From positions 166,217-230,216 of the forward strand of contig CACXHY010000001.1 in the NCBI GenBank assembly GCA_902767565.1: a stretch of 64,000 bases of DNA, in the 5' to 3' direction. The position numbers and the translations under genes were made by a program. The notes beneath the pieces were generated by a model, which saw nothing but the letters and a program-made list of their open reading frames with translations, made no database searches and was not told where the DNA came from. The stretch comes from an uncultured Eubacteriales bacterium (GTDB taxonomy: Bacteria; Bacillota; Clostridia; Christensenellales; Aristaeellaceae). Below, one piece after another: positions 22,354 through 60,647 of this stretch (its first letter is position 1; the number at the start of each line of letters is the position of its first letter).

Positions 22354-22442
22354 GGAGCGGTATCGAAGTGGTCATAACGGCCCTGACTCGAAATCAGGTG
22401 ACGGGCAACCGTCCGTGGGTTCGAATCCCACCCGCTCCGCCA
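22354..22442 (+). tRNA. tRNA-Ser (anticodon CGA), 89 nt, long variable arm, CCA encoded
   Basis: Acceptor GGAGCGG/CCGCTCC; anticodon stem CCTGA/TCAGG with loop CTCGAAA; long variable arm; T-arm GTGGG-TTCGAAT-CCCAC; discriminator G plus CCA. Confidence 0.85.
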
Positions 22443-53571: not shown

Positions 53572-54447
53572 GTGAGACCGTTGTACCTGTCAGCCTTCTA
53601 TTTCCCGGGCGCGGAGCGGGAAGCCGACTTCATGTTCGGCCTCAAGACCACGTACGATCAGAGCGTTTATCCGTATGGCGTCCTTCCGAAGGCGGGCCTT
53701 GACGAGATCTTCTTCAAGCCTGTAACGATCCTGTACGGCGGAAACGGCTGCGGCAAAAGCACCGCCCTCAATGTGATCGCGGAAAAGCTGCGGCTGGACC
53801 GGACCTGCTCGTATAACCGGTCCCGCTTCTTCGGGCGGTTCGTGGATGACTGCCGGGCTTCGGTGGAGGACGGGATCCCGAAGGGGAGCCGCATCATCAC
53901 CAGCGACGACGTGTTCAACATGATGCTGGACATCCGCGCGCTCAACGACGGCATCGACCTCCGGCGGGAGGAGCTGGCGGAAGACTACTTCCGGCTGAAG
54001 CGGGAGAGATTCCGGGTGCAGTCGCTGGACGACTACGAGCACCTGCGGCAGGTGACCCTCGCGCGGAGCAAAACGCTGAGCAGATTCATGGCGCAGGAGT
54101 CCGGGAAAAGCGTCCGGGAACGCTCCAACGGCGAGAGCGCGCTCATGTACTTTCAGAGCAGGATGGACACGGATACCCTCTGCCTGCTGGACGAGCCCGA
54201 AAACAGCCTGAGCCCGGAGAACCAGCTGATCCTGGCGGACTTCCTGGCCGAAGCCGTCCGCTACTGCGGGAACCAGCTGATCATCAGCACCCATTCCCCC
54301 TTCCTGCTGGCGCTCCCGGGCGCCCGCATCATCGACCTGGACCGGCAGTCCGAGGTGGCGGACAGCTGGACCGAACTGAAGAATCCCCGGGTCTATTACG
54401 AGTTCTTCAGGAAACACGCGGCCGAGTTCGAGGACCGGCGGGAATGA
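53572..54447 (+). CDS. AAA-type ATP-binding protein (AAA_21/ABC-ATPase-like, orphan)
   Basis: P-loop GGNGCGKST and Walker B LLDEPENSLSP; no adjacent permease or partner; GTG start. Confidence 0.55.
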   Translation: MRPLYLSAFYFPGAEREADFMFGLKTTYDQSVYPYGVLPKAGLDEIFFKPVTILYGGNGCGKSTALNVIAEKLRLDRTCSYNRSRFFGRFVDDCRASVEDGIPKGSRIITSDDVFNMMLDIRALNDGIDLRREELAEDYFRLKRERFRVQSLDDYEHLRQVTLARSKTLSRFMAQESGKSVRERSNGESALMYFQSRMDTDTLCLLDEPENSLSPENQLILADFLAEAVRYCGNQLIISTHSPFLLALPGARIIDLDRQSEVADSWTELKNPRVYYEFFRKHAAEFEDRRE

Positions 54448-54544: not shown

Positions 54545-54841
54545 TTACTCGATGTTCAGAACATCCGAAAACCCGGTGACCTCGAAGACTTCCTTTACGA
54601 GTTCGTTGGCGTTCCTGATGACCAGCCCGTCCTTGTTCATCAGGCTCTTATGGGCGGTCAGCAGTACGCGCAAACCCGCCGAGGAAATATAGTCCAGCTT
54701 TTCAAGGTCAAGGGTCAGGGAGGAAATCGCAGGGAGATGCTTGTTCAGAAGCTCCTCCAGTTCCGGTGCAGACATCGTGTCCAGGCGCCCCTCCAGGGCG
54801 ACAGCCAGCTTGTCATTTTCTCTGGTTGGATGAATCGTCAT
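54545..54841 (-). CDS. STAS-domain protein (anti-sigma-factor antagonist-like)
   Basis: LEGRLDTMSAPELEELL...LDLEKLDYISSAGLRVLL, with the conserved phospho-Ser context DYISSAG. The start is probably the internal ATG at 54841 (MTIHPT, spacing to AAAGGAG ok). Confidence 0.75.
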   Translation of the reverse strand: MTIHPTRENDKLAVALEGRLDTMSAPELEELLNKHLPAISSLTLDLEKLDYISSAGLRVLLTAHKSLMNKDGLVIRNANELVKEVFEVTGFSDVLNIE

Positions 54842-54864
54842 ATCCATTTCTCCTTTGCATCGAC

Positions 54865-55407
54865 TCACTCGGCAAATTCCTTCGTGACGGTGAGTTCGAC
54901 AAGATGCCGCCGGATCCCGATCTTCACGTCGTCCGTGAGGGAGAGCAGGACCGAGCGCTCCAGCTTATCCCATTTGGGCTCATTGATCACCGTGTCGGTG
55001 AGATCCGCGGCCTGGGAACGGTTGCCGGATTCGCTGTAGTAGCGGTCCACATCCGAACCCACCGCCATGGCGGCCTCGTAGATCTCACGGAGTTTTCCGA
55101 GGAAACCCTTGGCCGCTTCATTGGTCCCGGAGGAGGAGGAGCGGACCAGTTCGCCGCGCTGCGTGTTGCCCAGCGTCTGCCTGGACTGCAGATGCAGGGT
55201 AAAGACCTTCCCCTCGTTCTCGATCCAGAACTCCGCGTCCAGCTTCCCCGCGATACTGCGCACCAGGGAAAGCATCTCCTCGGTGATCAGGCAGAGCTGC
55301 CGGGTCTCCTTCGGGGTAAGAATGCCCTCCGCTGCCAGTTCCGTTTCCTTGTGAGCGTCACTGAAGCCATCCCCGGTGCTGCGGATGACAATGGTTCTTG
55401 ATTTCAT
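54865..55407 (-). CDS. hypothetical protein (180 aa) co-operonic with the STAS protein
   Basis: No clear motifs; the stop abuts the STAS gene start. Confidence 0.4.
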   Translation of the reverse strand: MKSRTIVIRSTGDGFSDAHKETELAAEGILTPKETRQLCLITEEMLSLVRSIAGKLDAEFWIENEGKVFTLHLQSRQTLGNTQRGELVRSSSSGTNEAAKGFLGKLREIYEAAMAVGSDVDRYYSESGNRSQAADLTDTVINEPKWDKLERSVLLSLTDDVKIGIRRHLVELTVTKEFAE

Positions 55408-55534: not shown

Positions 55535-57577
55535 TCAAATTGCCGTCAGGAAAGGCGCCAGAATGGACAGCATGAGCGAAGCGATCAGCAGGATGATGGC
55601 GCCGCCCAGACGGGAAGAGATCTGCGCGAAGGGCATGAGTTCCATGCGGTCGGCGGCAGAGAGCACGGCCACATCGCCTGTGCCGCCCATGTTGGACATG
55701 CACAGACCCGCGGTGACGCCGGACTCAAAGGGATAGAAGCCGACAAACTTGCCGATGAGCGCAGCGCCGGTGAACGCGCCGATGCAGGTGGCCGCGCACA
55801 GCAGCAGGTAAGTGATGCTGAAGCTGGAGATGACGGTGGCGATTTCAAGATAGCATACGCCAATGCCCAGAAGCAGCACGTTGGTCAGGTTCTTCATGAT
55901 GAACTGGAACCACTGATAGCAGGCTACTTCGATATGTTCCGGGACGATGTTGGTGATCTTGCACACAGCCACGGTAATGATCATCCACGCGTAGGCATGC
56001 ACGGTAATGCCGGTTCCGAGTGCGTTCCAGCAGCCCTGCAGAATGTAGCCGACGGCAAAGAAGGTACCGGAGACCAGAAGGCCAATGCCGAGGTTCTTCA
56101 AATCGATCTTGTCGCGCTTCTGCTGCATTTCGGGGCTGATTTCCATTTCCTTGGGATCCATGGTGCCCGCCTGCATCAGGGCGCCGTTTCCGTTCAGTTT
56201 GCCCTTGAGGACCTTGACCAGGATGCCGGCCAGCACGATGGAGATCGCGTTGCCGATGGCCACGGCCGGCGTCATGACGGACAGAGCCTGCGCCGCAGAC
56301 ATGGAGCCGCTGCCCTCAAAGATCTTGGATAGCGGGGACGCGCCGGCGCCCATGCCGCCGCCCATGATGGGCAGGGCAATCAGCAGCAGCGCGTTCATGG
56401 GCGGATACCCCATGATGAGCGCCACGCCCATGCACAGCGCGAAGGCCAGGATCAGGCCGCCGAAGATGGCCGGGAAGTAACGGGCCGCAGCCTTCATCAG
56501 GAGCTTGCGGTTCATGCCCAGAATGGAGCCCGTGATCAGGGCCGCAATGTACCAGTCAAGGAATCCGCCGGTGGTTTTGAAGAAGGTGCCGATGTTGCTC
56601 ACCAGGTCCAGATTGCCGAAGGGAAGGAACATATTCCAGCCCTTTTTGCCCTCGTACTGCTTGGCGAGCTCGCCGGTATCCAGATACTCCTGAATCTCAG
56701 GCACGCAGTCGGCCGCTTCCACAGAAACGCTCTTGACGGCTTTGCCGCCGTCAAACTCAACCTTTACGGTGACGGGCTTGTTCTGATAGCCCTTGACGAC
56801 GGAGGTGTAGGTTTTGCCTTCTTCACGCTTGACGCTGGAATCCTTCAGGATGCCGTTGATCGCGCCGTTGACGGCCGTCACGGTCACTCCGATTGGATCC
56901 TTCTTGCCGGATGAGGCCGTGACACCCGTGTAGTAGCCGCTGAATGCCTCGCCGGTAATGTAGGCGCGGGCTGCGTCCGCCTGCGTGCCTGCCGCTTCGT
57001 CGGCTGTGATGTCCACAATGTACTCATTGGGCTCAACGACCAGCGTCTTTACCTTTCCGCCTTCGTTCCTGCCTTTGACGACATTCGCATCAACGGTGAC
57101 CCTGACGGTCACACGCTTTGTATCGGCCGCGTCGCCTTCCTTGACTTCCGGATAGGTGTATACGTACTCCCTGGCCGTGTCCGGATTGTCCTTGTCCACC
57201 TCGTTGATGAGGATGTGGTCGACGGCCTTGTCCACCAGTTCTACGGCTGCCCGGGTCTCGGTCGGCAGAGCGTACTTGGCCGTCACGCTGTTGAAAGCCG
57301 GGATCAGTCCGAAATAGACCAGCAGCGCGGAGCCGAAGATGACCACGATGGCGCCGCCGCCCAGGTAGGACTTGATGATGGGCGTATGGTCACCGATCCA
57401 GGCGAGGATCTCGCCCACGACGATCATAAAGACGAAGCAGCCAGCCATGCCGGCCGGAAGCACACCCAGATAAGTGGCCAGCAGTACCAGCACGGTGACG
57501 ATCGCGAAGATTGGCCAGGGTAGGCCGAAGAACTTCAAAGGATTCTTCTTTTTTTCCGTCGGTTTTGCGTTGCTCAT
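55535..57577 (-). CDS. 2-hydroxycarboxylate transporter (2-HCT, CitS/MleP family) with a ~230-aa extracytoplasmic insertion
   Basis: N-terminus LKFFGLPWPIFAIV...GDHTPIIKSYLGGGAIVVIFGSALLVYFGLIP and the C-terminal two-thirds match 2-HCT topology. aa ~120-350 form a non-membrane insert (VTVRVTVDANVVKG...VVKGYQNKPVTVKVEFDGGKAVKSVSVEA). Start ATG 57577 (MSNAKPTEKKK). Confidence 0.7.
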   Translation of the reverse strand: MSNAKPTEKKKNPLKFFGLPWPIFAIVTVLVLLATYLGVLPAGMAGCFVFMIVVGEILAWIGDHTPIIKSYLGGGAIVVIFGSALLVYFGLIPAFNSVTAKYALPTETRAAVELVDKAVDHILINEVDKDNPDTAREYVYTYPEVKEGDAADTKRVTVRVTVDANVVKGRNEGGKVKTLVVEPNEYIVDITADEAAGTQADAARAYITGEAFSGYYTGVTASSGKKDPIGVTVTAVNGAINGILKDSSVKREEGKTYTSVVKGYQNKPVTVKVEFDGGKAVKSVSVEAADCVPEIQEYLDTGELAKQYEGKKGWNMFLPFGNLDLVSNIGTFFKTTGGFLDWYIAALITGSILGMNRKLLMKAAARYFPAIFGGLILAFALCMGVALIMGYPPMNALLLIALPIMGGGMGAGASPLSKIFEGSGSMSAAQALSVMTPAVAIGNAISIVLAGILVKVLKGKLNGNGALMQAGTMDPKEMEISPEMQQKRDKIDLKNLGIGLLVSGTFFAVGYILQGCWNALGTGITVHAYAWMIITVAVCKITNIVPEHIEVACYQWFQFIMKNLTNVLLLGIGVCYLEIATVISSFSITYLLLCAATCIGAFTGAALIGKFVGFYPFESGVTAGLCMSNMGGTGDVAVLSAADRMELMPFAQISSRLGGAIILLIASLMLSILAPFLTAI

Positions 57578-57634
57578 GGCACAATTCCCTTTCCTCTCGT
57601 TCTGGCATGGGGGTTGGGGGATCACCTGACCGGA

Positions 57635-58804
57635 TCACAGTCTCGCCACACCGCTGTCACGGGCAGCCTGGGCGACGGCGGCGGCCACGGCCGGGCCGAT
57701 GCGCTTGTCGAAGGCCATGGGCAGGATGTAGGTTGCACTGAGTTCCTCCGGGGAGACAAGATCAGCCAGGGCGTGGGAAGCGGCCTGCTTCATGGCCTCG
57801 TTGATATCGCGGGCGCGCACGTCCAGGGCACCGCGGAACAGGCCCGGGAAGCACATCACGTTGTTGATCTGGTTGGGATGGTCGCTGCGGCCGGTGCCCA
57901 CCACCGCCGCGCCGGCGGCCAGAGCTTCATCCGGCTCGATCTCGGGCGTGGGGTTGGCCATGGGGAACACGATGGCGCCGGGGGCCATGGAACGGACCAT
58001 GTCCTGGCTGACGATGTGCGGCGCGCTGACGCCGATGAACACGTCGGAATCCTTCATGGCGTCGGCCAGCTTGCCGGAGAACTTCTCCGGGTTGGTGATC
58101 CTCGCCATCTCCTCCTGGGCAGGGTTCATCTGCTCGCCCTCGCAGAGGATGCCGAAGCGGTCCACCATCTTCAGGTGCTTCACGCCGAGGTTCATCAGAT
58201 GCTTGCCGATGGCGATGCCGGCGGAGCCCGCGCCGTTGATGACGCACTTTGCCTCGCCGATGTCCTTGCCCACCACGCGGAGGGCGTTGATCAGCGCCGC
58301 GCCGACCACGACGGCGGTGCCGTGCTGGTCATCATGGAACACGGGGATGTCGCAGATCTCCTTCAGCTTGCGCTCGATCTCGAAGCAGCGCGGTGCGGCG
58401 ATATCCTCCAGGTTGATGCCGCCGAAGGAGCCGGAGATCAGGTACACGGTCCGGACGATCTCGTCCACATCCTTGGAGCGAATACAGATGGGGAAGGCGT
58501 CCACGTCGCCGAAAGCCTTGAACAGCGCGCACTTGCCCTCCATGACGGGCATGCCCGCCTCGGGGCCGATGTCGCCCAGGCCCAGCACAGCGGTGCCATC
58601 GGTGATGACGGCCACCATGTTGTGGCGGCGGGTCAGGGTGAAGGACTTGTCATAGTCCTTCTGGATCTCCAGGCAAGGTTGGGCCACACCGGGGGTGTAG
58701 GCCAGGGACAGGTCCTCCTTGTTCCGGACGGGCACACGGGAAACGACCTCGATCTTGCCCTGCCACTCGCCGTGCAGGCGCAGGGATTCCTCTGCGTAAT
58801 TCAA
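57635..58804 (-). CDS. NAD(P)-dependent malic enzyme (bacterial short type), TTG start
   Basis: (M)[19 protein letters not shown] matches the MaeA/YtsJ N-terminus. The dinucleotide motif is [13 protein letters not shown] at 58804 sits 7 nt after a perfect AGGAGG; there is no in-frame ATG/GTG with an RBS upstream. Confidence 0.8.
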
Positions 58805-59101
58805 AGGAACACCTCCTATATATTTGCTGATTCCATTGTATATGGCTTGAGCGGAAAAAGCAAGCCCATTTTCGACAAATACGAGGAATTTGCTTTGAAA
58901 CCATAAGATATGCTGCGCCTTCTTCTTCATTGCACGGACAAGGCGCAGTGCATGCCGATCCGGCAGTGCCGCTGCAGTGAGTGCCGTTTGCGGACATGGA
59001 ACATACCCGCGGCGGTCTTTTCTGCGGCGCGGGGATCCCGGCAAATCAAGAGCCCCCGCCCGCAGAACTGCGGACAGGGGCAGTTCGGCCTCGCGGCCGG
59101 A

Positions 59102-60253
59102 TCACTTGTTCAGGTAAATGAGTTCGTGGGTCTCGGGATCACGGGCAAACTGGGACAGGAATTCCCAGACCACCTCGGCCTCGGAGGGCATGAGCCAGTG
59201 GGGAGCGCCCTCGACCGCCACCAGACGGAAGGTGCAGACACCGTCCTCGTTGTAGTAGCTGCCGATGTAGTAATTCTGCTCGTCATAGTGGCGGACTTCC
59301 ATCTGGCCCAGGGTCTGGTACTGCAGGCCGGTCATGCGTTCCACGCCGTAGGCGGAATTGCGGGCCACGTTTTCCAGCAGTTCGGGGGTCATCTCCGGAG
59401 CCACGGCGCCGCTGACGGTGATCCAGTAGTTGACCTCGGGCGTGGCGATGGGCATGCTGTCGGCAGTGCCTCCGAAGAAGCAGATGGGCATGACCGCCGC
59501 GCCCAGGGCGTCGAATTTTTCCTGATCGAACGCCCAGTAGAGCTGAGAGTCGGGCTCGCAGGGAGTGTTGTCGCGCTCGTCACCGATGCCGTCGCCGTTC
59601 TTGCCGAGCGGTCCGATGCCGCCGGGGGCCGCCGCTGCGAAGAGCTCGGGATAATTGATGATCGCGTTCAGGGTCGAGACGCCGCCCTTGGAGAAGCCGG
59701 TGACGTAGATACGGCTCTCGTCGATGGAATACTCGCCGCGCACGGTGTCCAGAATGCGCGGGATCTCCTCGATCAGGATATCGCCGTTGCTGGCCCAGGG
59801 ACAGATGGTGATGAAGCCCTCACGGCCGCCCAGCTCGGCAAAGCCGTAGGTCTCCGCCAGCATGATATCGTTCTGGTTGCCGTGCAGGCAGAAGACCACC
59901 GGGAACTTGTAGTCCTCGCCGAACTCATGGCCGGTGGGCACGAACACGGACCACATATGGTCCGCATCATCCGCGTCATAGACCTTCTTGGTCAGACCCA
60001 GGGAAGCCCAGTGAGCGATGACTGCGGGATCTTCCTGGCCCGCCAGGCCATAGACGGTGAAATAGTACAGTTTCTCATACAGCATGTTGGCGGCCTTGGT
60101 CTCAATGAATTCCGTCGGCTTGTAAAGCTTGGCCTCACGGCCGGAGCCCATCAGGTAGCCGGAGAACGCGTCGTACACGGGATCAGCAGCCAGCGCGGAG
60201 ACGCAGCTCAGCATCATCGCGGCCACAAGGGCCAGAGCAAACAGTTTTTTCAT
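59102..60253 (-). CDS. secreted alpha/beta hydrolase (esterase/PHB-depolymerase-like)
   Basis: Signal peptide MKKLFALALVAAMMLSCVSALA; nucleophile elbow GFSKGG; RBS GGAAGGGGA before ATG 60253. Confidence 0.7.
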   Translation of the reverse strand: MKKLFALALVAAMMLSCVSALAADPVYDAFSGYLMGSGREAKLYKPTEFIETKAANMLYEKLYYFTVYGLAGQEDPAVIAHWASLGLTKKVYDADDADHMWSVFVPTGHEFGEDYKFPVVFCLHGNQNDIMLAETYGFAELGGREGFITICPWASNGDILIEEIPRILDTVRGEYSIDESRIYVTGFSKGGVSTLNAIINYPELFAAAAPGGIGPLGKNGDGIGDERDNTPCEPDSQLYWAFDQEKFDALGAAVMPICFFGGTADSMPIATPEVNYWITVSGAVAPEMTPELLENVARNSAYGVERMTGLQYQTLGQMEVRHYDEQNYYIGSYYNEDGVCTFRLVAVEGAPHWLMPSEAEVVWEFLSQFARDPETHELIYLNK

Positions 60254-60647
60254 GGTTCCCCTTCCTTTCATTTGCGGTCGGTCAACTGGGAAACGGGTTG
60301 CTGTGCGTTCAGCACGTTCCCGGCCGTCATATGATATGCGCAGCGTATCATCATGAGCAGAGCCGGAGCCGTGCGGGATGCCGGTGATCGGCGGGGTCCT
60401 GAAGCCCATCCGCCATGATTTGACCCGTCCGTGCGTCATATAATGCAACACGTGTCTCTTTGTTCGTGACGATCGTATCACTATATTTGTGTTATGTCAA
60501 TATGTTTTTTTCCGTTTTGAACATTTTGTGGAGGCCAGTCGATGTTCTCCCGTCTCTGTGATCCGGATCAATTGCAGACGCGTGTCTGTATTTGCAAACG
60601 GAGCGATCGTATACCCGGCCGCGGACCCTGGCGGGAGCATGCCACCA

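Follow-up and report, generated by a model that had tools for sequence, protein, structure and literature searches.

Two adjacent genes on the reverse strand (−) of a 64,000-nucleotide (nt) stretch of DNA, hereafter the window, are the subject of this analysis. The window is taken from an uncultured Eubacteriales bacterium (Clostridia; Christensenellales; Aristaeellaceae; assembly GCA_902767565.1, contig CACXHY010000001.1, positions 166,217 to 230,216). The first gene encodes a malic enzyme of 389 amino acids (aa; 57635..58804 (−), TTG start, Pfam malic and Malic_M) and the second, 57 nt further along the same strand, the long form of a 2-hydroxycarboxylate transporter (2-HCT; 55535..57577 (−), 680 aa plus stop, PF03390). 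The span of 55535-58804 that an initial annotation had assigned to the pair was correct. Both genes belong to a unit of four co-oriented genes between 59044 and 54545 (−). Residues 94-316 of the transporter (56630..57298 (−)) form an extracytoplasmic insert made of two modules derived from FMN_bind domains, the flavin mononucleotide (FMN)-binding domains of PF04205.

The open reading frame (ORF) of the transporter occupies 55535-57625 (−) and extends back to a GTG at 57625; translation from the ATG at 57577 yields the 680-aa protein, which begins MSNAKPTEKKK and has an N-terminus in agreement with those of its relatives. By all sequence and fold criteria applied, the protein is a member of the 2-HCT family (PF03390 / TC 2.A.24). 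The Pfam 2HCT model matched with 447.4 bits against a cut-off of 26.2 (E 5.1e-134), the match being split in two by the insert, so that the description of a 680-aa 2-HCT protein was sustained; the normal length of 430-450 aa given with it was too short for this clade, in which short relatives have 460-500 aa. Alignment with the citrate transporter SeCitS (5a1s; E 4e-73) paired residues 13-92 with CitS 20-99 and residues 336-673 with CitS 113-445, and an AlphaFold2 (AF2) model matched 5a1s and 9lsk with E values of ~1e-15 and target TM-scores of 0.73-0.79. The criterion for a CitS-type fold was 11 transmembrane helices plus two helical hairpins carrying GGxG motifs; both hairpins were present (GGGMG at 406-410; NMGGTG at 629-634, with GGTG at 631-634) and aligned to the hairpin motifs of CitS.

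The substrate site points away from citrate. The helix-13 arginine that binds a substrate carboxylate in SeCitS (R428) is kept as R656, within QISSRLGG, and the equivalents of Tyr348 and Ser405 are likewise retained (Y576 and T633). Two citrate ligands of SeCitS are replaced in this protein and in its clade, Asn186 by Met409 and Arg402 by Met630 (56348-56362 and 55676-55693, (−)). Methionine at both citrate-ligand sites, with the other three positions kept, suggests a substrate with fewer carboxylates than citrate. The CitS equivalog model NF047943 scored 366 bits, below its cut-off of 600, and on this sequence evidence the protein is not CitS proper. Because of these changes at the ligand site, the sub-cut-off CitS score, the malic enzyme found directly upstream of the transporter in all eight loci fetched (long, mid and short forms alike), and the precedent of maePE-type operons, we infer that the substrate would be L-malate or a close 2-hydroxy-dicarboxylate, feeding the malic enzyme.

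The malic enzyme itself was recognized by both of its Pfam domains (PF00390, malic, E 2e-32; PF03949, Malic_M, E 5e-24) and by NCBIfam PRK12861 (360 bits), in which the 389-aa protein covers positions 20-408 of a 764-position model, that is, the malic-enzyme part alone. With both malic-enzyme domains and no C-terminal phosphotransacetylase-like domain, it is of the short prokaryotic type. Counterparts immediately 5' of the transporter gene in eight other loci show 87-94% identity to it, and the proposed operon of a short-type malic enzyme with the transporter is upheld by conservation of the pair in eight loci. The TTG start (58804-58802) lies 7 nt behind an AGGAGG ribosome-binding site (58812..58817 (−)), as the initial annotation had it; in all seven related loci compared, the gene opens with TTG AA(T/C) TA(C/T) GC, preceded by (A)AGGAGG at a spacing of 6-8 nt. 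An alternative in-frame ATG, 42 codons further 5', lacks a ribosome-binding site and would itself overlap a conserved promoter-like element; the TTG start is therefore well supported. The putative promoter (TTGCTT-17 nt-TACAAT, 58835..58863 (−)) keeps its hexamers at the same position in seven loci (the window, L001 and L003-L007), as TTG[ACT]TT and as TACAAT, TATAAT or TAAAAT. A scan for consensus promoters did not call it, the -35 hexamer matching at only 3/6 positions.

The insert divides the transporter into an N-terminal part (residues 1-93, 57299..57577 (−); CitS 20-99), comprising the cytoplasmic N-terminus and helices H1-H3, and a C-terminal part (residues 317-680, 55538..56629 (−); CitS 113-445), comprising the end of the native loop (LPFGNLDLV) and H4-H13. 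Between CitS residues 99 and 113, 243 query residues stand where CitS has 13, a surplus of ~220-240 aa. The CitS alignment thus confirms a large extracytoplasmic insert after which the canonical transporter resumes. The number of transmembrane helices ahead of it had been put at two; it is three (H1-H3 in CitS numbering) by both the CitS alignment and the AF2 model, which places helices at 21-36, 44-64 and 75-88. SeCitS has a cytoplasmic N-terminus; its moving bundle consists of H5-7 and H11-13 and its static dimer-contact domain of the other helices, with Asp112, at the N-terminal end of H4, located on the contact domain close to the periplasmic surface (PMC4718727). Given this topology and the three preceding helices, the insert is extracellular and belongs to the H3-H4 loop of the static domain.

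In short forms this loop reads PAAKTVDG(E/A)TVYNM.LPFG.LDLV; in long forms it reads PAFNSV-[insert]-GKKGWNMFLPFGNLDLV. Comparison of the two suggests a graft at the tip of a small hairpin (KTVDG.TVYNM of the short forms). Among the 120 closest database homologs, the loop measured 26-48 aa in ~92 clusters, 126 aa in five and 232-270 aa in 13, and it is variable in length in general (32, 41-54, 126 and 232-270 residues). One short or mid form, P0072, has an extra 13-residue insertion within the native LDLVG-NIG loop. The insert of the window protein has an isoelectric point of 4.98 and one cysteine.

Origin of the insert and state of its cofactor site

Two repeated modules make up the insert, as the initial annotation had proposed; when aligned to each other as profiles, they were found to be homologous (hhalign 97.6%, E 2.8e-12). 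Module 1 (residues 105-222, 56912..57265 (−)) is the more diverged copy, with AF2 helices at 106-126 and 202-216 and strands at 136-142, 156-163 and 175-182. Module 2 (residues 223-316, 56630..56911 (−)) is the better conserved, FMN_bind-like copy and was modelled with per-residue confidence (pLDDT) of 80-92. For each module, AF2 predicted one long helix, then three strands and a pair of short helices. A model of the insert alone reached a mean pLDDT of 81.7 and a predicted TM-score (pTM) of 0.75, from only 15 sequences.

The ancestry of the modules was established at the level of profiles. Precomputed Pfam annotation of all long forms listed PF03390 only; a Pfam search with the insert returned merely sub-threshold matches to Big_3_4, RTX and NEAT, which were rejected, and a search of PDB sequences with a profile of module 2 returned nothing below E 0.7. 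The same profile was then run against 1.84 billion representative proteins at E values up to 1e-3. It yielded 145 matches, one of which, P0011, was the sole transporter cluster; the other 144 were new relatives, in which the match was often repeated, up to 10 times. PF04205 (FMN_bind) was present in 133 of the 141 matches scanned with Pfam, and in 10/10 in a separate scan. A profile of 44 canonical repeat units from these proteins aligned with module 2 at 98.6% (hhalign, E 8e-16) and with module 1 at 74.8% (E 2.6e-5). Reciprocally, when the canonical-unit profile was searched against all six-frame ORFs of the window, it found the transporter only (E 3.7e-9; module 2 domain, E 1.5e-8). The match to multi-FMN_bind proteins argues that the modules are diverged FMN-binding domains (PF04205), homologous at the profile level. 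They are not NEAT domains by the same kind of evidence: PF05031 gave E 0.12 and 13.3 bits against a cut-off of 32.8, over 42 of 119 model positions. The first description of the modules as resembling FMN-binding or NEAT-like domains therefore stood in its first half, as distant homology, and fell in its second.

The boundaries of the modules differ from those of the canonical domain. Solved single FMN_bind domains have three strands followed by two helices (PMC10339131), and in the canonical domain frame the element order predicted by AF2 is the same. The modules, however, are out of register by one helix: they begin with the last helix of the preceding canonical repeat, and they stop at (Q/K)(Y/F).G..G, just short of the next flavinylation site. 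Among the FMN_bind relatives, one protein also carried BPD_transp_1, an ABC permease domain, and two carried Cytochrom_C552; judged by such domain matches, FMN_bind repeats combine with other membrane or redox proteins too.

In FMN_bind domains the FMN lies between helix N-termini and is stacked by a tyrosine of the first loop; a Thr or Ser where helix 1 begins forms a bond with it, and the Thr that opens the last helix is its point of covalent attachment (PMC10339131). The motif flavinylated by ApbE is D-x-x-[S/T]-G-A-[S/T] (PMC8238504, PMC12052999). This motif, searched for as D..[ST]G[AS][ST], was found in 102 of the 144 new FMN_bind relatives (260 copies in total) and in none of the 18 insert-bearing proteins. 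The ET(P)G string, searched for as ET[PAD]?G, was found in only 2/18, being replaced elsewhere by DCV, GCP, NHP, GQD and others. What survives in the window protein is a relic at the junction of modules 1 and 2, K226-D-P-I-G-V-T232 (56882..56902 (−)), whose G230-V231-T232 falls on the canonical G-A-T in the hhalign alignment, while Thr234 pairs with the second Thr. Orthologs do not share the relic: at this position the 13 long forms have KDPIGVT (window), KDPIGAT (the database twin P0001), DPIGKT (five), DPVTAT (one) and DPVAKT (one), and four are without the Thr. The twin differs from the window protein at two residues, one of them in the relic (P0001, P0121 and window 56882-56902 compared).

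At the other end, module 2 closes with SNIG or GNIG, and the position equivalent to the attachment site is a Gly, Asn or Arg of the native loop. LDLVSNIG was considered as a second decayed flavinylation site, as hhalign does align it to an IDAVSGAT stretch; this candidate was rejected because the sequence is common to all short forms and lies partly within the 2HCT Pfam model (positions from 81), which marks it as native transporter sequence.

Since the residues that hold FMN and attach it covalently have been lost, the modules most likely carry no cofactor, to judge from their sequences. Two defining features of the family, the Pfam threshold and the flavinylation motif, fail here, and the insert should accordingly be called FMN_bind-derived rather than an FMN-binding domain.

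Distribution, evolution and genomic surroundings

Among the 120 best database relatives of the transporter, the long form accounted for 13 clusters plus P0011, the mid form (one module) for five and the short form for ~97. All named sources were metagenomes or metagenome-assembled genomes (MAGs) labelled Clostridia or Clostridiales. The insert was found in four GTDB species representatives, all of them MAGs, whose names (Sheep_Rumen, RUG, RUI) point to different rumen studies; it is confined to a small set of uncultured Clostridia, mostly from the rumen. The membrane cores of long, mid and short forms are mostly 85-93% identical, the mid forms being closest in their cores to the long form P0015. 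Identity of the insert to that of the window was far lower, at 31-55% for the whole insert and 23-57% per module. Features conserved within the insert are the hydrophobic pattern and the GKKG(W/Y)NM junction, and its conserved positions, mainly structural, are for the most part occupied by Gly, Pro and hydrophobic residues. A junction of the form A(F/Y)N(S/T)V..AK opens the insert in most long and all mid forms, which favours a one-time insertion with duplication or deletion afterwards. We tentatively read the distribution as a single insertion, with module duplication or deletion and repeated loss thereafter; descent of the short forms from an ancestral long form by deletion was considered, but core identities give no clear tree.

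Two further features were observed among the relatives. P0005, a 633-aa short form, has an internal duplication of ~165 residues of its core (alignment columns ~565-730), which probably arose through misassembly or through recent tandem duplication. A C-terminal extension of ~25 residues (e.g. NPEAVSQMLETVKTAAAAVPIG) occurs in P0019, P0022, P0024, P0067, P0072 and P0087, which are short or mid forms, and is missing from the window protein.

Substitution rates were estimated by the NG86 method for the window against five loci (L001 and L003-L006), with the insert taken as 56630-57298 and the core as 55538-56629 (−). The ratio of non-synonymous to synonymous rates (omega) was 0.08-0.16 in the core, 0.31-0.66 in module 2 and 0.18-0.75 in module 1. 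By these rates, the insert is maintained yet fast-evolving compared with the core. The synonymous rate (dS) of the insert (0.84-2.7) exceeded that of the core (0.5-0.7) in 5/5 comparisons; misalignment, diversifying selection, or homogenisation or recombination of the core are possible causes.

Downstream of the transporter lie the other two genes of the unit, encoding a 180-aa protein without a family match in Pfam or NCBIfam (54865-55407 (−)) and an anti-sigma antagonist of the STAS type (54545-54868 (−); TIGR00377, 67.6 bits). Their ORFs overlap by 4 nt. No terminator-like site was found between the transporter and this pair (54545..55407), which is co-oriented and is possibly co-transcribed with it; two terminator-like sites follow the pair on its 3' side (54535-54463). 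The two proteins could form a partner-switching pair with an unrecognised partner. The pair also lies 3' of the transporter in L001 and L002 (72% and 61% identity) but was not found in the ~5 kb downstream of it in L003-L006; a link of the pair to the insert was considered and, for that reason, rejected.

On the upstream side, a terminator-like hairpin (59052..59081 (−); 13-bp stem, 10 GC pairs) closes an esterase-like gene and bounds the unit. This gene, 5' of the malic enzyme, encodes a protein of 459 aa from its listed GTG start (59102-60481 (−)), which matches Esterase and Peptidase_S9 weakly in the region of a GFSKGG serine motif; a hydrophobic stretch like that of a signal peptide occurs ~80 residues in, and the true start may lie further downstream. 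Beside the unit, on the opposite strand, is a gene for a 291-aa protein with AAA_15/AAA_21 matches (AbiEii-like ATPase; 53572-54447 (+)). The sole tRNA gene of the window is a tRNA-Ser (CGA) at 22354-22442 (+).

A putative accessory ectodomain and its alternatives

The insert is real, rare and structurally curious; its function as an ectodomain is putative. The explanation we prefer, at a probability of roughly 0.55, is that it serves as a cofactor-less accessory surface ectodomain on an ordinary malate importer. The proposed course of events is as follows: a 2-HCT elevator transporter of the CitS fold would import L-malate or a close 2-hydroxy-dicarboxylate, and the adjacent malic enzyme would decarboxylate malate to pyruvate. 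At some point ~220 residues would have been gained at the hairpin tip, in the outward H3-H4 loop of the static scaffold rather than in the moving bundle. Their source would have been an FMN-binding domain (PF04205) of secreted multi-flavin proteins, from whose repeat array a piece was presumably cut one helix out of register, consisting of a last helix, three strands and the first helix of the next repeat. This piece would later have been duplicated and, in some lines, trimmed to one module or lost.

The insert is absent from relatives whose cores are near-identical, and it is thus not needed for transport. Because of its position on the static scaffold, the ectodomain need not hinder movement of the bundle, and the modules would be tolerated there without disturbing transport. 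Their predicted role would be to stabilise or cover the outer face of the dimer, or to contact the envelope or partner proteins; quick evolution would be expected of them, as of exposed surface parts. The data above show the family, the insertion point, the homology of the repeats, the FMN_bind ancestry, the loss of motifs, the difference in rate and the distribution; the substrate, the lack of a cofactor, the accessory role and the origin scenario are the parts of this account that we infer.

Several observations weigh against it. The insert alone gave no FMN_bind match in Pfam even at E values up to 10. A partial G-V-T survives in the window protein, and G-A-T in its twin; as the A-to-V change lowers flavinylation without abolishing it, the window protein may retain some modification. 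The substrate is read as malate from context. Finally, long and short forms interleave by core similarity, and the non-synonymous rate (dN) of the insert, at 0.36-0.94, is about equal to or above the core dS; this rate pattern and the interleaving are as compatible with a nearly neutral passenger as with a useful domain.

Such a passenger, a fragment drifting in a permissive loop, repeatedly lost and without a selected function, is the strongest of the alternatives, if still an improbable one. In addition to the rates and the interleaving, it would account for the loop being a hot spot of length variation and for the decay of the cofactor motifs. It is harder to reconcile with an intact frame, free of stops, in at least 18 clusters and four species-level MAGs, or with an omega below 1 within the region in 10/10 comparisons. 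The conserved hydrophobic pattern and GKKG(W/Y)NM junction, a confident fold predicted from a shallow alignment, and the retention of both copies of a duplicated module also speak against drift alone.

We regard as unlikely a second alternative, in which the ectodomain has remained a flavoprotein, with module 1 either flavinylated at Thr232 by an ApbE outside the cell or binding a flavin non-covalently, and couples malate uptake to extracytosolic redox state or electron transfer. Its specific form, a working module with Thr232 flavinylated by an extracellular ApbE, and hence an elevator transporter whose outer face bears a covalent flavin that links malate uptake to extracellular redox state or to extracytosolic electron-transfer partners, is slightly less likely again. 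Descent from FMN_bind, the alignment of the relic and of Thr234 with canonical positions, the G-A-T of the twin, and a Thr at the relic position in 9/13 long forms agree with such a flavoprotein. So does the stacking aromatic (GY), present in module 2 of 13/13 long forms, and in a model protein D-to-A, G-to-A and A-to-V changes lowered but did not abolish flavinylation (PMC12052999). Against these stand the absence of the canonical motif from all 18 proteins, a Lys at position -1 in five long forms, the four without the Thr, and a relic Asp displaced by one position. Both modules have lost the ET(P)G Thr to which flavin N5 is bonded, and module 2 ends S/G-N-I-G, without a Ser or Thr at the attachment position. 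The profile search of six-frame ORFs found no other FMN_bind protein in the window, and no ApbE-family match occurred among the called genes of the 18-kb L001 locus. The relic's lack of conservation argues against a selected flavin site.

Under the initial annotation's proposal of a substrate-capture or sensor domain, which is doubtful to a similar degree, the insert would bind extracellular malate or citrate and either pass it on to the transporter or regulate the transporter. The insert is extracytoplasmic, is part of the same polypeptide as the transporter, is predicted to fold as a two-domain unit, and is kept in at least 18 clusters with omega below 1. Its ancestral fold, however, is that of a small redox-cofactor domain and not of a solute-binding protein, and its conserved residues include no polar cluster. 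The insert identity of 23-57% contrasts with ~90% for the substrate site and the malic enzyme. Relatives with near-identical cores do without the insert, the short-form locus examined having the same upstream malic enzyme, and the insert is attached to the static scaffold, away from the hairpin gates.

Neither of the two objections foreseen in the initial annotation applied: the insert is not a known loop of a recognised 2-HCT subfamily, and an assembly chimera or frameshift artefact, of the kind that the core duplication of P0005 resembles, has a negligible chance of explaining an architecture that recurs with identical junctions in independent ENA, NCBI and JGI assemblies (13 long and five mid clusters), in four GTDB species representatives from different rumen studies and, for P0013 alone, on eight contigs, with GC content even across the transporter gene.

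Should the reading as an accessory ectodomain be true, the transporter would offer a clean natural case of an elevator protein with a domain inserted into its static scaffold. It would mark a loop that tolerates a graft of 100-270 residues, useful for placing fiducials or sensors in 2-HCT/CitS-type proteins, and it would indicate that FMN_bind repeats can be recruited after loss of the cofactor. Because such decayed copies are invisible to Pfam, surveys of extracytosolic flavinylation would neither count nor exclude them. Should the flavin reading be true instead, the window protein would become the first example of a secondary transporter that bears a covalent flavin outside the cell. On both readings, the combination of malate uptake with a malic enzyme is ordinary core biology.

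Comparison with known systems

As a transporter, the window protein resembles CitS (PDB 5A1S, 5X9R, 9LSH) and the other 2-HCT proteins (MleP, CitP, MaeN, CimH, MaeP) in its fold, helix order, GGxG hairpins, and equivalents of Arg428 and Tyr348. It differs from CitS in the ~230 extra residues of its external H3-H4 loop and in having Met for Asn186 and Arg402. In the searchable literature, no 2-HCT member was found to be described as carrying an ectodomain, and within that literature the initial claim that such an insert domain is new for the family holds.

As an operon, the locus recalls the maePE-type operons established for malate use in Lactobacillales (PMC5457438). It shares with them a malic enzyme adjacent to, and co-oriented with, a malate-type transporter, and catabolism of malate to pyruvate is likely here too. 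Genes for the MaeK/MaeR two-component system were not found among the immediate neighbours (esterase-like, 180-aa, STAS and AAA_15/AAA_21 ATPase genes; adjoining genes only). The order in the window, enzyme then transporter, is unlike that of maePE, as is the host, a high-GC rumen-type lineage of Clostridia.

As a domain, the insert is closest to the secreted multi-FMN_bind proteins (CbFMN4, SaFMN3; PMC10339131) and to the domains of RnfG, NqrC and PplA, to which its modules are homologous at the profile level and whose layout of three strands and two helices they are predicted to share, together with the (G)Y/F loop and the F..Q(F/Y).GK helix. The modules differ from these proteins in being without D-x-x-[S/T]-G-A-[S/T] and ET(P)G, in lying below Pfam detection, and in a register shifted by one helix. 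They differ also in setting: the multi-FMN_bind proteins form soluble arrays, whereas the modules described here sit in the loop of a transporter.

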